Part shown: positions 3,532 through 57,905 of the stretch, piece by piece | How the letters are laid out: each line of letters opens with the position of its first letter | How positions within the stretch are numbered: the stretch's first letter is position 1 | Source: Candidatus Thiovulum imperiosus | Lineage (GTDB): Bacteria; Campylobacterota; Campylobacteria; Campylobacterales; Thiovulaceae | DNA: 64,000 nucleotides | Direction: 5' to 3' | Assembly: GCA_024281175.1 (NCBI GenBank) | Contig: JAMJTW010000008.1 | Location: forward strand, 159,309-223,308 | Notes under the pieces: model-generated | Seen by the model: the letters and a program-made list of their open reading frames with translations, nothing else | Told to the model about the DNA's origin: nothing | The model's database searches: none | Made by a program: the position numbers and the translations under genes

Positions 3532-5440
3532 GATATAGTTTTCCGTCCATATTTACTTCAACTATCATTTTTGCCATATAAAGTCCAATTCCAGTACCAA
3601 ACGACTCATGTTTTGTTGTAAAGTATGGTTGAAAAATCTTATCTTTCAACTCTTCTGGAACTCCATTTCCACTATCTTTTATAGAGAGAATACAGATTTC
3701 ATTCTCCTCTTTCGCCTCTATCCAAACTCTTTTATCTTCAACACTTTTCAGAGCCTCAATTGCATTATTTAGTAGAATTAGAAGAGTCTCCTGAAACTCA
3801 TATTTGTATCCATTTATTAACATCTTTCCGTGACATGAAAAGTGTAGAGTCTCTGCACCATTTATAAAAACTCGAATACCTTTCTCTCTAAATATATTTT
3901 TCTCTAAATCTATTGCTTCTAACAGAGTTTCACAAATCGAAAACTCGGTCTTCTCTTTATCTGGTTTAAAAAAGTATCTAAATTTGTCTATGGTTTTTGA
4001 CATCATCTGAACTGTACTGTTTACACTTTCATACCTCTCTTCAAGATACTCTTTTGAGAGTTCATCATACTCATAAGTTTCTAAAATATCATAAATGTAA
4101 TTAGAGATAGAGGTTAGTGGCTGTCTCCACTGATGAGCAATCATTCCAACAATTTCAGAAACAGCACTAATTTTTGCTTCACCCATTCTTTTCTGAGTCT
4201 CTATATTTTCTCCAATAGAGACAATCATCGCATTAAAAGAACTGGAGAGCATTCCTATCTCATCTTTTGAAGAGATATTACTTCTGATATTGTAATTTCC
4301 TCGTTTCACCTCATCAGAAAGAGTTGCAAGATAGTTTATTGGAAATATAACTGTTTTTGAGATATAGATAACAAAAAAGAGAATTAGAAAGAGAATTATA
4401 ATAGAGTTCCAGATAAGTATCTCTTTAAGAGTATCACCACCTTTTTGAAGTTCACTCAAATAGGCACTTGAACCTATATACCAATGTAGAGGTTTATAGT
4501 GTTCAACCCAAGAGACTTTTTGATAGATAAAGTTTCCAGTATCATCTGGTCTATCCCATAAATAGTAAAGTGTTTTTGAAGCAGACTCACCAGCCTTTTG
4601 TAAAGACTCTGCCATTGTGTATTGTGTATTTGGATTTGGATAATTTTTAAAGTCTTTGCCGATGAGGTATCTATTTGGGTGAAAAAGCATCTCATGTTCT
4701 CTGTTGAAAATGTAGATATATCCTGTATCTCCTATCTTTGTCTTCTCAAGAATAGTTTGAATTTTCTCAGTAAGTTCTCTCTCTCTTTCTACTATTTTGC
4801 TATTTCTATCATCAAGGTAAACTCCTGTTCCAATTACTAAATCCCACTCTGGAATATATTTGAAATAGGAAATCTTTCTCTCTATCTGATTAGAGTTGAA
4901 GTTTTTCCAATAGTACTGATAATATCCCTCTCCATCTCTTTTTGCAATATCAACCATATTTGCAACAACACTATTGCCTTTGATATCTTTTACCTCTTTT
5001 CCATCTTTCAAAGAGTCCTTATCTGGATGCACTTTAGCCACATAATCACCATCAATTATCCAGATATAGTTCTCTTTCTCATATCTAAAATCTTGGAAAT
5101 ATTGGAATGCTCTACTTTTTGCCTCTGCCTCACTCAAAATTCCACTTTTAGAAATATTTATATACTCTCTAATTGTATTGGCAGAAAAGTCTACAATTTG
5201 TTCTGCATCTTCTTTTAGGTGTTCCAAAGAGTCCTTTTTAAAACTCTCCAGTTCAGAGTGGTAGATATCTACAATTTGATAAATTTTAGCAAGAGCCTCT
5301 TTGCCCTGTTTTTCAACAAGAGAGAAGTTGTAGTTCTGATTGAATGGAAGAATATAGAAATAGAAAATAACTATTTCAGCTAAGATGAGAACTAATAGAG
5401 TTACGATTGTTTTTTTTAGAAGAATAGAAGAACTTATCAT
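3476..5440 (-). CDS. Sensor histidine kinase with periplasmic Cache-like domains and HAMP
   Basis: N-terminal TM helix; two Cache-like segments (YIWIIDGDYVAKVHPD, GYIYIFNREHEMLFHPN); second TM; HAMP-like linker; H-box IAHQWRQPL; ATPase boxes LLNNAIEA, DSGNGVP, GTGIGLYMAK. Confidence 0.85.
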   Translation of the reverse strand: MISSSILLKKTIVTLLVLILAEIVIFYFYILPFNQNYNFSLVEKQGKEALAKIYQIVDIYHSELESFKKDSLEHLKEDAEQIVDFSANTIREYINISKSGILSEAEAKSRAFQYFQDFRYEKENYIWIIDGDYVAKVHPDKDSLKDGKEVKDIKGNSVVANMVDIAKRDGEGYYQYYWKNFNSNQIERKISYFKYIPEWDLVIGTGVYLDDRNSKIVERERELTEKIQTILEKTKIGDTGYIYIFNREHEMLFHPNRYLIGKDFKNYPNPNTQYTMAESLQKAGESASKTLYYLWDRPDDTGNFIYQKVSWVEHYKPLHWYIGSSAYLSELQKGGDTLKEILIWNSIIILFLILFFVIYISKTVIFPINYLATLSDEVKRGNYNIRSNISSKDEIGMLSSSFNAMIVSIGENIETQKRMGEAKISAVSEIVGMIAHQWRQPLTSISNYIYDILETYEYDELSKEYLEERYESVNSTVQMMSKTIDKFRYFFKPDKEKTEFSICETLLEAIDLEKNIFREKGIRVFINGAETLHFSCHGKMLINGYKYEFQETLLILLNNAIEALKSVEDKRVWIEAKEENEICILSIKDSGNGVPEELKDKIFQPYFTTKHESFGTGIGLYMAKMIVEVNMDGKLYLEDNSKFVLEIEKSEIYT

Positions 5441-54971: not shown

Positions 54972-55360
54972 ATGAAGAAATTAGTTCTATTTTTTACCCT
55001 CACGCTCTCTCTTTTTGGAATTGAGAATAGTTTTATCGACTCACTACCAAAACTCCAATAAAAGAGGAACTTGAGGGGATAACTGGGTTGAATTGTGCAA
55101 TAAAAAGTATTTCAAATATTTCTGGAATAGGAAATCTTTCTAATTTGACTTACCTCTATTTGCATAACAATTCGATTTCAGAGATAGGTAGTGAAATAGG
55201 AAATCTTTCTGATTTGCAATACCTCTCTTTGCATAAAAACAACATAACAGAAATTCCATCAGCTCTAAATTCGCTTTCAAACTTGAGTAAGCATTTAAAT
55301 CTACTACAATTACCAAATCCTCTTCTGAAACCGTTGTTGAGTTCCTTGAAAGAGTTTTAG
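54972..55360 (+). pseudogene. Frameshifted small secreted leucine-rich-repeat protein
   Basis: ATG 54972 gives the signal peptide MKKLVLFFTLTLSLFG..., which stops at 55059. A different frame, open from 55031, continues as ...EELEGITGLNCAIKSISNISGIGNLSNLTYLYLHNNSISEIGSEIGNLSDLQYLSLHKNNITEIP (LxxLxLxxNxI repeats). Confidence 0.5.
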
Positions 55361-55530: not shown

Positions 55531-55549
55531 CCCTGAACTTGTTTCAGGG
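55531..55549. repeat. Palindromic hairpin unit CCCTGAA-N5-TTCAGGG
   Basis: CCCTGAA-CTTGT-TTCAGGG. The same arms occur at 11251..11269. Confidence 0.55.
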
Positions 55550-55575
55550 TCTCTCATTTTTGCTAAAATCTTCAA

Positions 55576-55842
55576 ATGGAAACAAAAAAGCTTAAATTAG
55601 ATGTTATAAAAACTCAAGTTGAGATTTTTCATAAAAAGATATTGGTATTTTTAGGAGTTGGAGCGGGAAGTTTCTATTATGCTGTTAAGTTTATAGGAAA
55701 CTCTGAAATCTTGGTTACATTATTTGCTCTCTTCTTAGCGTTAGTATTTGCATATGTTTCACTTGGAACAATTGTAACTCTTGTCAAATTAAATTCTTTG
55801 GAAAAAGATTTAGATATTCTTAAAAGGAGTTTAGATGAATGA
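55576..55842 (+). CDS. Small two-TM membrane protein, hypothetical
   Basis: 88 aa; hydrophobic helices ILVFLGVGAGSFYYAV and LVTLFALFLALVFAYVSLGTIV; located in the accessory islet. Confidence 0.4.
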   Translation: METKKLKLDVIKTQVEIFHKKILVFLGVGAGSFYYAVKFIGNSEILVTLFALFLALVFAYVSLGTIVTLVKLNSLEKDLDILKRSLDE

Positions 55843-55951: not shown

Positions 55952-56013
55952 GTAAATAAAAATAAAATATGGTAAAATTCTTTTTGGAAATTTTACTTCC
56001 ATTTTGAATTTGT

Positions 56014-56113
56014 CTTGATAAGGCTTTACCAAGTGCCTTTTTGCAAACTTAAGGCTTCCTTCGGGAAGTCTTATCAAGGTGAATTCGGAGAGTTTGCAAA
56101 TAAAACTTGGTAA
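56014..56113 (+). ncRNA. Candidate structured leader/ncRNA upstream of antirepressor cassette 1
   Basis: Nested stems: TTACCAAGT (56026-34) / ACTTGGTAA (56105-13); TTTGCAAACT (56040-49) / AGTTTGCAAA (56091-100); and a 10-bp hairpin at 56050-73 capped by C(UUCG)G. Upstream CTTGATAAGGCTT (56014-26) can alternatively pair with AAGTCTTATCAAG (56066-78). A paralogous copy with compensatory changes lies at 57022..57119. Confidence 0.55.
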
Positions 56114-56173
56114 CTTTATTTTCAGCTCTCTAAAAAAGAGGATTTCCACCAAATTTATTTTTACCGTATTTAA

Positions 56174-56974
56174 ATGAAAGAACTTATCAAAGTTTCTCAA
56201 AACAGAATAGGAGACGACGAAGTAAATTCCGTTTCTGCTAGAGAATTGCATAAAGCATTAGAGTCTAAAGACGAATTTGCACACTGGAGCAAAGCTCAAA
56301 TTAAAAGAGCTGGACTAGAAGAAAACATCGATTTTATCAAGGTTTGGAGCGATGGGGAAAAACCCATCGCTAAATTTATCCTAGAAAAAGAACTTTTAAA
56401 AAAGTTTAAGTCTGTACAACAAGCGACAGCCTCTGGTTGGCAATCTGATTACATCTTAACTATTGAAAGTGCAAAACATATTGCTATGATGTCAGGAACA
56501 CAAAAAGGAAAAGAGGTCCGAAACTATTTCATTGAGATTGAAAAGAAGTTTTGGCAAGTTTCCGAAACAAAAGTTTCTTCTTTAAAAGATTTAGATAGAG
56601 CAAAAATGAAAGAGTTGAAGTTACAAGTTCAAGATTTACAAGAACTTTCAAAACCAGTTTTAGAGTTTTCAAAAACTCTTCAAACTGAAAATCCATACAC
56701 CCTTACAGTTCTTGAAAAGATTACAAAAGAGAATTTAGGTTTTTCACTTTTTGAAACTTTTCAAATTGACTTTTCAGAAACTCTGTTTCTACCAACTGAG
56801 CTTGGAAAATTTATTGGAGTTTCAGGAGCTGAAATGAATAGGAAATTGAAAGAGAGAGGTTTTCAAATTCGAGATGGAAAAAATTGGAAACTTACAGAAA
56901 AAGGAAAAAAGTTTGGAAATGATGTTTCCGAAGATTTTCCGCAACTCAAATGGAAAATTGATGTTCTTTTGTAA
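56174..56974 (+). CDS. Phage antirepressor (AntA N-domain + KilAC/ANT C-domain), copy 1
   Basis: VNSVSARELHKAL...F..W; DYILTIESAKHIAMMSGTQKGKEVRNYFIEIEKKF (AntA-like); C-terminal LPTELGKFIGVSGAEMNRKLKERGF (KilAC-like). Confidence 0.8.
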   Translation: MKELIKVSQNRIGDDEVNSVSARELHKALESKDEFAHWSKAQIKRAGLEENIDFIKVWSDGEKPIAKFILEKELLKKFKSVQQATASGWQSDYILTIESAKHIAMMSGTQKGKEVRNYFIEIEKKFWQVSETKVSSLKDLDRAKMKELKLQVQDLQELSKPVLEFSKTLQTENPYTLTVLEKITKENLGFSLFETFQIDFSETLFLPTELGKFIGVSGAEMNRKLKERGFQIRDGKNWKLTEKGKKFGNDVSEDFPQLKWKIDVLL

Positions 56975-57021
56975 ATGTGATAAAATCCTTTTTAGAAATT
57001 TTACTTCCATTTTGAATTTGT

Positions 57022-57119
57022 CTTGATAAGGCTTTACCAGTGCCTACAACATGAACGAGGCTTTCTTCGGAAAGTCTTATCAAGGTGAATTCGGAGAGTT
57101 CATGTTGTGAAACTGGTAA
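57022..57119 (+). ncRNA. Candidate structured leader/ncRNA upstream of antirepressor cassette 2
   Basis: Same scaffold as 56014..56113: TTACCAGT (57034-41) / ACTGGTAA (57112-19); ACAACATGAAC (57046-56) / GTTCATGTTGT (57098-108); hairpin 57057-78 with C(UUCG)G; alternative pairing CTTGATAAGGCTTT (57022-35) / AAAGTCTTATCAAG (57071-84). Confidence 0.55.
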
Positions 57120-57179
57120 CTTTGCACATTTACTCTCTCAAAAGAGGATTTCCACCAAATTTATTTTTACCATATTTAA

Positions 57180-57905
57180 ATGAAAGAACTATTAAAAGTT
57201 TCTCAAAAGAGAATAGGAGATGAGTCTGTAAACTCTGTTTCTGCTAGAGAATTGCATGTAGTGTTAGGGGTGAGCAAAGATTTTTCAAGCTGGATAAAAG
57301 CACAATTGAACAGGGGTTTTTTTGTAGAAAATATTGATTACATCGTTGTTCCAATTGGCAAAAGTTTGCACCCCCAAAAAGGTGAGCAAAGAGGTGGTCA
57401 TAATAAAATAGACTATATTCTTACTCTTGAAACAGCTAAACATATTGCAATGATGTCTGGAACTCAAAAAGGAAAAGATATTCGAGATTATTTCATTGAG
57501 ATTGAAAAGAAGTTTTGGCAAATTTCTGAAACAAATGTTTCTTTAAAAGATTTAGATTTACAAAGTGTTGAGACAGACTTAGAAACTGTGAGTAGAATTC
57601 TAAAGATTTTTCAAGAACACAACTCTTTAGAAAAAACGCAATTGGATAACTTCATAAATGCTAAATTTGGCGTTTCACTTCTCCAGAGTTTTAAAATCTC
57701 TTTTCAAAACACTCTTTTTCTACCAACCGAACTTGGAAAATTTATTGGAGTTTCAGGAGCTGAAATGAATAGGAAACTGAAAGAGAAAGGTTTTCAAATT
57801 CGAGATGGCAAACATTGGAAATTGACAGAAAAAGGCGTAGAGTTTGGAAATGATGTTTCCGAAGAATTTCCACAACTCAAATGGAAAATTGATGTTCTTT
57901 TGTAG
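57180..57905 (+). CDS. Phage antirepressor (AntA + KilAC), copy 2
   Basis: Paralog of 56174..56974. The N-terminal ~25 aa, the DYILTLETAKHIAMMSGTQKGK block and the C-terminal ~60 aa are near-identical. The middle is divergent. Confidence 0.8.
   Translation: MKELLKVSQKRIGDESVNSVSARELHVVLGVSKDFSSWIKAQLNRGFFVENIDYIVVPIGKSLHPQKGEQRGGHNKIDYILTLETAKHIAMMSGTQKGKDIRDYFIEIEKKFWQISETNVSLKDLDLQSVETDLETVSRILKIFQEHNSLEKTQLDNFINAKFGVSLLQSFKISFQNTLFLPTELGKFIGVSGAEMNRKLKEKGFQIRDGKHWKLTEKGVEFGNDVSEEFPQLKWKIDVLL

Follow-up and report, generated by a model that had tools for sequence, protein, structure and literature searches.

Two alternative predicted folds in a family of leader RNAs upstream of ant genes in uncultured Campylobacterales

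A 64-kb stretch of DNA from Candidatus Thiovulum imperiosus (contig JAMJTW010000008.1 of assembly GCA_024281175.1; 64,000 nucleotides, hereafter the window) carries two tandem genes, ant1 and ant2, that encode AntA-domain proteins and are each preceded by a nearly identical structured region. Comparison of these regions with relatives from metagenomes suggests that each is, in all likelihood, a cis-acting leader RNA that can adopt two alternative folds, termed here A and B. Taken as a whole, the evidence is best explained by one two-state leader per ant gene, acting in cis with fold B as an attenuator, a reading to which we assign a probability of roughly 0.6. As judged from comparative sequence analysis, these leaders constitute a real and previously undescribed family of cis-regulatory RNAs. 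An earlier note on the same DNA, based on inspection of the window, had described a duplicated structured element ahead of the two genes and had offered a cis attenuator as one of its possible functions; this is now the leading reading.

A leader family with two folds

The regions at 55965-56173 and 56973-57179 are near-identical except in the middle stem of a long hairpin and in a short linker that follows it, in agreement with the earlier description. Within the window, the conserved blocks of the leader are confined to these two sites; none would be expected by chance. Folding z-scores are -4.3 for copy 1 and -4.4 for copy 2, and none of 200 dinucleotide shuffles was as stable. The leader RNA of copy 1 is predicted to span 55986-56173 on the + strand, a length of about 188 nt that ends at the base preceding the ant1 AUG, and that of copy 2 to span 56994-57179 on the same strand, which also carries all other features described below.

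Close relatives of the Ant proteins were found in a set of JGI metagenomes, and the corresponding contigs carry the element upstream of ant, both at a syntenic two-gene locus (L009) and at solo ant genes located at two other chromosomal places (L010-L013 with L016, and L014 with L015). A covariance model, R1, was built from seven leader sequences; it scores the two window copies at 247 and 227 bits and retrieved three more distant members (L032, L036, and L040; E-values of 1e-8 to 1e-13) whose Ant proteins are 39-40% identical to Ant2. Such a covariance-model search had been proposed in the earlier note, and it enlarged the family accordingly. The family, whose members were found via protein relatives and R1 and yield R1 E-values from 1e-8 to 1e-37, now comprises 10 distinct leaders, every one of them immediately upstream of an AntA-type gene in uncultured Campylobacterales. 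The element was absent from two other Ant relatives (L018 and L039) and from 14 sampled members of a set of 39 IMG/VR Ant relatives. Four DNA patterns searched in IMG/VR gave no match, a pattern scan of metagenome contigs gave four matches that all proved on inspection to be due to chance, and a protein scan of genome contigs returned only distant Ant proteins with at most 48% identity. Rfam, searched at permissive thresholds, returned nothing relevant for the leader region, the whole window, or four relatives, which upholds the initial impression that the element belongs to no known RNA family.

Fold B is a long hairpin predicted with the same architecture in all 10 sequences (-31 to -40 kcal/mol), in which a small internal loop separates the outer stem from a 10-15-bp middle stem, and an apical hairpin and a large asymmetric loop complete the structure. 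In copy 1, the outer stem joins 56026-56034 (TTACCAAGT, that is, UUACCAAGU) to 56105-56113 (ACTTGGTAA, that is, ACUUGGUAA), the middle stem joins 56040-56050 (TTTGCAAACT) to 56090-56100 (AGTTTGCAAA, listed as GAGUUUGCAAA), and the apical hairpin occupies 56051-56072 (AAGGCUUCC, UUCG, and GGAAGUCUU). Copy 2 follows the same plan over 57034-57119 (-34.0 kcal/mol predicted), with the outer stem at 57034-41/57112-19 (TTACCAGT/ACTGGTAA), the middle stem at 57045-56/57098-109 (ACAACATGAAC/GTTCATGTTGT), and the apical hairpin at 57057-78. As had been noticed, both apical hairpins are capped by C(UUCG)G, with the C56058-G56065 pair of copy 1 replaced by T57064-A57071 in copy 2, and the middle stems of the two copies are wholly different in sequence yet still complementary.

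This difference extends to the family, in which nine distinct self-complementary variants of the middle stem are found among the 10 members, their complementarity including some G·U pairs and being interrupted by one bulge and two mismatches. Compensatory double changes occur at 10 of its 12 aligned pairs; judging from the alignment, nine unrelated stems that pair perfectly or nearly so cannot be a product of chance. Across the middle and apical stems together, 96.2% of cells are paired and 11 pairs show double changes, values reached by no more than one of 500 shuffles, while slid controls are 17-53% paired; the pair count itself leans towards structure because the register was set from each sequence's own fold. 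The apical hairpin is altered in length and loop in the three distant members but retains its pairing. The outer stem is less informative. A paired 1-nt deletion, one on each arm, does distinguish the two window copies as had been proposed, but the rule fails in copy 1 of L009, where AAGT faces ACTGG and leaves a bulge; moreover, the 5' arm is conserved in all 10 members and so carries no covariation information.

In fold A, a segment upstream of the long hairpin (56006-56026, GAAUUUGUCUUGAUAAGGCUU) pairs with 56066-56086, which covers the apical hairpin's 3' arm and most of the asymmetric loop of fold B (TCAAGGTGAATTCGGAG). The resulting helix A, formed in copy 2 by 57014-57034 and 57072-57092, is chosen by both minimum-energy and consensus folds. 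An alternative pairing of this kind had been recognized in the earlier note, although its length was given there as 13-14 bp; the helix is in fact 21 bp long and includes four G·U pairs in copy 1. Likewise, the loop described as invariant is indeed the same in the two window copies, but it varies in distant relatives, where it co-varies with its partner in helix A. The alignment of this helix is unbiased because its arms contain no indels. Across the 10 sequences, 207 of 210 cells are paired, 39 of them (19%) as G·U, and four pairs show compensatory double changes (for example, GAU/AUC to AGU/ACU to AGC/GCU).

Directly 3' of helix A, a further hairpin, P3, is predicted to accompany fold A. Its lower part, P3a, pairs 56087-56094 (GGAGAGUU) with 56124-56131 (AGCUCUCU) around a core of GGAGAG (56087-92) and CUCUCU (56126-31), which appears in the family as the covariants GGAGAG/CUCUCU, GAAGAG/CUCUUC, GAAGGG/CUCUUC, and GAAGAA/UUCUUC. 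Its upper part, the 5-bp P3b (56100-56119), joins AUAAA at 56100-04 to UUUAU at 56115-19 and holds the 3' arm of the outer stem in its loop (ACUUGGUAAC). Family-wide, P3b pairs (A/G)U(A/G)AA before the outer 3' arm with UUU(A/G)(U/C) after it, enclosing the loop ACU(U)GGUAAC; the closing pair alternates between A-U and G-C, and the single mismatch lies in the recombinant copy 2 of L009. The P3 hairpin of copy 2 spans 57093-57138, with P3a at 57093-100/57131-138 and P3b formed by GUGAA (57107-11) and UUUGC (57121-25). More extensive pairing of the linker with the whole 3' variable arm was considered and rejected, the cognate mean being weak (-2.9 versus -1.6 kcal/mol) and only the 5-bp P3b convincing. 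For helix A and P3 combined, 97.6% of cells are paired and eight pairs show double changes; none of 500 shuffles reaches these values, and slid controls contain at most one such pair.

Folds A and B are mutually exclusive because fold A occupies strands that fold B needs (56066-56086 is shared), and each 3' element has two alternative partners because fold A with P3 re-pairs the strands of B. The exclusivity that had been suspected from the window alone is thus matched by compensatory changes for both folds among the 10 members. As far as these alignments go, the comparative support for two alternative folds is unusually good. Two conformations that are both under compensatory mutation are uncommon outside riboswitches and classical attenuators. 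When each fold is enforced on the full-length leader, A and B lie within 0-8 kcal/mol of each other in ensemble energy, A being the more stable in six of the 10 members and about equal to B in the others; in a transcript cut at the end of the hairpin, the difference is again 0-8 kcal/mol, with B favoured in six and A in four. The heptamer AAGGCUU is present in both the upstream arm and the apical 5' arm, which compete for a single partner, AAGUCUU. The element may thus represent a natural bistable RNA with built-in strand displacement.

The covarying positions also bear on whether the inverted repeats act as DNA, either as an integron attC-like site, a transposon end, or an operator, with the arms kept matched by template switching. 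This explanation would accord with the occurrence of ant cassettes at different chromosomal places, with the mosaic character of genes and leaders, and with the two similar hairpins that flank the cassette of L014. It is nevertheless highly improbable. The 19% of helix A pairs and the many fold B pairs that are G·U would turn into A·C mismatches if the opposite strand were the one to fold, and the - strand folds on average 11 kcal/mol less stably than the + strand across the family. A lone DNA hairpin would also leave the covariation of fold A and P3 unaccounted for. Gene calls gave neither an integrase nor a transposase within about 4 kb at any locus, and GTTRRRY/RYYYAAC core sites were not visible by eye. 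The same two properties, G·U content and strand energies, point away from a DNA cruciform and from an antisense transcript and towards an RNA of the + strand, and no -10 box is conserved on the opposite strand inside the leader. The earlier view of the element as a structured RNA of the + strand with true covariation in its stems is thereby strengthened.

Proposed output of the switch

According to the preferred reading, each ant gene would have its own extended -10 promoter and a leader of about 190 nt that switches in cis. Fold B would act as an attenuator, the transcript ending or being processed just 3' of the hairpin, at about 56114-56122 in copy 1 and 57120-57128 in copy 2. To reach fold A, the upstream segment at 56006-26 would first invade the single-stranded internal loop of B, which is the open 3' half of helix A, and would next displace the apical 5' arm, which carries the same AAGGCUU heptamer, to complete the 21-bp helix. 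P3 would then take up the freed 3' strands of B, using GGAGAG/CUCUCU together with a 5-bp extension in which the UUU directly 3' of the B hairpin is paired. Fold A with P3 would thus be the read-through form, from which ant is expressed; we infer that this is the ON state.

Termination or 3'-end formation after B is put forward only tentatively as the output. It was chosen because the strands and the UUU on which a terminator would depend are precisely those paired by P3 and P3b, and because the B hairpin is followed by C-UUU and a variable tract whose U-tract score is 2.2-2.5 in five of the 10 members. In copy 1 the hairpin precedes CTTTATTTT, which had been described as terminator-like; for comparison, a likely terminator at 55531-49 in the window scores 2.0. 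Simple masking of the start region does not appear to be the output, because folds A and B leave the ~30 nt preceding the AUG open to the same degree and because L040 carries a 17-nt insertion with a true Shine-Dalgarno sequence (AGGAG) between the leader core and the AUG. Masking by nested structure was consequently dropped as a candidate.

In its general design, the ant leader would work most like a terminator/antiterminator leader. It is likewise a 5' leader that probably acts in cis through two exclusive folds with a common strand, one of them a long hairpin followed by a U-containing tract and the other sequestering the 3' strands of that hairpin. However, the antiterminator of the ant leader would invade an internal loop, whereas the classical one pairs with the 5' arm of the terminator. 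In addition, the ant leader has a weak U-tract and one hypervariable helix, and no leader peptide, T-box, aptamer-like conserved pocket, or known protein site was found in it.

Several observations weigh against the attenuator reading or limit the covariation behind it. The tail after hairpin B is weak by Escherichia coli standards: the first base is C, the stem base is AU-rich, and the U-tract scores 1.5-1.7 in five of the 10 members. The invariant CUUU after the hairpin is already accounted for by P3b pairing. As for a sensor, no upstream open reading frame (ORF) is conserved among the 10 members, and there is no obvious ligand pocket because nearly all conserved nucleotides are assigned to one of the two pairings. 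The covariation statistics lean on few lineages, since the family numbers no more than 10 distinct sequences, drawn from a few related uncultured lineages, with seven of the sequences closely related, and the fold B alignment was anchored by hand.

Three further candidates were rejected. Translational coupling through a 32-aa ORF that runs in copy 1 from a GTG at 56079 to a TGA at 56177, overlapping the ant1 ATG, and that has a counterpart in copy 2, was discarded because no leader outside the window keeps the ORF intact; stop codons interrupt it in eight of the 10 members, and the GTG start is GTA in three. A riboswitch of a known class is not indicated by any Rfam match, and what looks like a conserved 'loop' in fold B serves as the 3' strand of helix A and co-varies with its partner. 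Finally, the 3' arm of helix A resembles part of the 3' minor domain of 16S rRNA at about 14 of 17 positions, but by estimate this is no more than chance would give.

The main alternative, though a somewhat unlikely one, is that the switch operates on translation. Fold A would display (C)UUGGUAA in the P3b loop, which could pair with a UUACC(G/A) box and mask initiation, and fold B would free the box. The box lies at 56162-56166 in copy 1, 12 nt before the AUG, and at 57168-57172 in copy 2 (UACC(A)). Its core, UACC(G/A), is kept in all 10 leaders and stands 11-13 nt from the AUG in nine, at the usual position of a Shine-Dalgarno sequence. The earlier observation that neither window ant ATG has a nearby Shine-Dalgarno sequence holds, and nine of the 10 family genes lack one. 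The GGUAA is invariant and looped out in fold A, and loop-box pairing would fit the recurring design of two partners per 3' segment. On the other hand, only 5-6 bp are possible, and the sole variation seen by eye is U·G to U-A and back. In L040 the box is 28 nt from the AUG, and the real Shine-Dalgarno sequence has been inserted after it. The start region is also equally accessible in both folds, by nested-structure predictions that cannot model a loop-box pseudoknot.

It is also possible, but unlikely, that one fold is merely an intermediate, with B forming first and A with P3 later, or that helix A is an RNase III substrate that sets the lifetime of the mRNA. B is local and so should form first, and the greater full-length stability of A in most members would favour a later rearrangement; helix A is the only duplex of at least 20 bp and extends coaxially to about 30 bp, as such a substrate might. 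Elaborate control of mRNA folding during transcription has been documented in another member of the Campylobacterota (PMC5416894, PMC6733600). Indeed, the hok and Helicobacter pylori aapA1 mRNAs also have successive exclusive leader structures and a predicted pairing of the 5' end with a downstream segment (PMC5416894, PMC6733600), and H. pylori, like the host of the ant leader, belongs to the Campylobacterota. Unlike these mRNAs, however, the ant leader has no small toxin ORF, the downstream genes encoding Ant-type proteins of 241-292 aa, and it has neither a conserved antisense promoter nor a Shine-Dalgarno sequence to sequester. Its likeness to the metastable aapA1 leader would therefore hold in a general sense only. 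The sequence says nothing in favour of RNase III cleavage. Attenuation by fold B thus stays the preferred output, at the tentative level stated above.

The variable middle stem and the comparison with c4

The earlier note had compared the arrangement of a conserved scaffold with exchanged complementary segments to the c4 immunity system of phages P1 and P7, and had raised the possibility of copy-specific, orthogonal targeting. The c4 RNA (immI; c4-icd-ant operon) is a 77-nt processed RNA whose loops pair with ribosome-binding-site targets and set hetero-immunity (PMC12197685). Both systems place an RNA element upstream of ant and embed variable complementary segments in a conserved scaffold. 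In the ant leader, however, the complementary segments pair with each other inside one hairpin, lack a match in the ribosome-binding region, and fall short of strict orthogonality. Membership in the C4 family was rejected, as no Rfam C4 match was obtained at E <= 10 for the window region or at E <= 1 for four relatives. A second phage precedent for control of an antirepressor gene at the RNA level is P22 sar, an antisense RNA (PMC12197685). That RNA is transcribed from the opposite strand, whereas the ant leader has no conserved opposite-strand promoter and its folds are specific to the + strand.

Duplexes between cognate middle-stem arms are predicted at -12 to -15 kcal/mol, and most non-cognate ones are weaker than -8; no cross-pairing is predicted between the window copies, for which the values are -2.0 and -0.8 kcal/mol. 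Strict orthogonality of the stem variants can nevertheless be discarded, given that window copy 2 with L010, and L009 copy 1 with L014, cross-pair as strongly as cognates do. Window copy 2 and L010 probably share one genome, since they come from the same samples and have similar contig numbers. Recognition of a stem by its own protein can likewise be set aside: the product of the second ant gene of L009 shares 96% identity with Ant2 (94% at four-fold sites), yet the leader of that gene has the copy-1 stem, so that stem and downstream gene are uncoupled. The variable arms are only partly orthogonal.

The two window copies are 69% identical at synonymous sites, and the middle stem has diverged further than such sites have on average, so diversifying selection on it is possible. 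The simplest account is that the helix is constrained only to pair and that recombination shuffles modules among paralogues; drift and recombination suffice for the diversity of the stem because the unpaired part of the linker is equally diverged. The remainder of the leader would be held by its double pairing constraints, and perhaps also by gene conversion.

It is quite improbable that the hypervariable helix instead serves as a c4-like 'address' module through which leaders or terminated fragments of the same variant pair between molecules and regulate their own kind. Such a role would suit the strength of cognate duplexes and the failure of the window copies to cross-pair, as well as a stem that is wholly different between copies still 69% identical at synonymous sites. 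In fold A, moreover, the 5' variable arm is predicted to form an 11-12-nt apical loop closed by GCCUU/AAGGC, and the 3' arm is half-open. Yet pairing in cis will dominate because both arms lie on one molecule about 40 nt apart, and two variants that cross-pair probably occur together in one genome. Duplex energies of the variable arms with their cognate -30 to +30 windows are no better than with non-cognate windows. Elsewhere in the window, no target was found for the copy-2 arms, and the AT-rich 11-mer of copy 1 recurs in unrelated coding regions with no extended pairing. The uncoupling of stem variant from gene and the sufficiency of drift and recombination weigh against an address as well. 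If the idea were true, several ant cassettes per genome would possess partly separate channels, and the system would correspond to P1/P7 c4 hetero-immunity in a cellular, self-contained form, reminiscent of a toehold switch.

The ant genes and their surroundings

The gene ant1 (56174-56974, + strand) encodes a 266-aa AntA-domain protein (Pfam AntA, E = 2e-19) and ant2 (57180-57905, + strand) one of 241 aa (E = 4e-22); both match the PHROGs category 'anti-repressor Ant', and both have a weakly KilAC-like C-terminus in addition to the AntA domain. The C-terminal part of the ant genes also gives a weak match to the PADLOC candidate family PDC-S69. Ant genes are mosaics, with about 30 initial and 70 final codons conserved among paralogues and an unalignable centre, and comparison of L010 with L016 reveals different ant alleles at one locus in different strains.

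The extended -10 promoters, as read from the sequence, lie at 55970-55978 in copy 1 (TGGTAAAAT) and at 56978-56986 in copy 2 (TGATAAAAT), the latter starting 4 nt past the ant1 stop codon and reading TTGATG-17-TAAAAT with an upstream TG. A TGnTA(A/T)AAT box occupies the same position in nine of the 10 family members. Judging from the spacing, transcription is predicted to start near G55986 in copy 1 and near 56994 in copy 2. Between ant1 and ant2 (56975-57179), a simple scan, of a kind that cannot see composite hairpins, gave no terminator-like hairpin besides the long hairpin of the copy-2 leader; the latter may therefore also set the 3' end of the ant1 transcript. The -10 region at 55965-55978 is complementary over 13-14 bp to 56158-56171, just before the AUG, as is 56973-86 to 57164-77 in copy 2; both strands would be present only in transcripts reading in from upstream. 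This complementarity was rejected as a conserved element, being confined to the close group and missing from L014, L032, L036, and L040.

The leader-ant island is flanked by ileS on one side and by a fumarate reductase/succinate dehydrogenase flavoprotein gene on the other, with no phage genes adjacent to it in the window. The IleS protein shares 74% identity with its best named relative, from a 'Campylobacterales bacterium', and 66-68% with proteins of Nitrosophilus and Nitratiruptor, as expected for a host among the uncultured Campylobacterota. Further upstream, a 90-aa leucine-rich-repeat ORF at 55088-55360 is apparently a gene remnant, the syntenic position in L009 being occupied by an intact 571-aa leucine-rich-repeat protein. 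Positions 55531-55578 of the window and 3772-3815 of L014 share a unit made up, in this order, of a hairpin (CCCTGAACTTGTTTCAGGG), TCTCT, and an extended -10 box (TGCTAAAAT); the unit stands upstream of an 88-aa ORF in the window and is fused directly to the ant leader in L014. The mRNA of the 88-aa membrane protein may be leaderless because the -10 box ends 6 nt before its ATG at 55576. In L014, similar sequences (AAATTACCCTGAAC...TTCAGG hairpins) are present at 3766-3790 and about 4762-4795, on either side of the solo ant cassette, which hints that the promoter-leader-ant unit may have been inserted at, or may have duplicated, a terminator hairpin. The settings of two distant Ant relatives are of another kind: in L018 (635-8664) and L032 (1-6227), these genes lie in arrays with pRha, Bro-N, KilA-N, and small helix-turn-helix proteins that adjoin very large MmeI-like or Type ISP restriction-modification enzymes, in what looks like a defence-island or mobile-element setting.

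The analysis thus adds a structured RNA family without an Rfam entry, from a lineage without a cultured member, in which both conformations carry compensatory mutations. Ant-type paralogues appear here dispersed in housekeeping neighbourhoods and mostly lacking a Shine-Dalgarno sequence, yet placed under conserved control at the RNA level, which suggests that their expression must be tightly limited.

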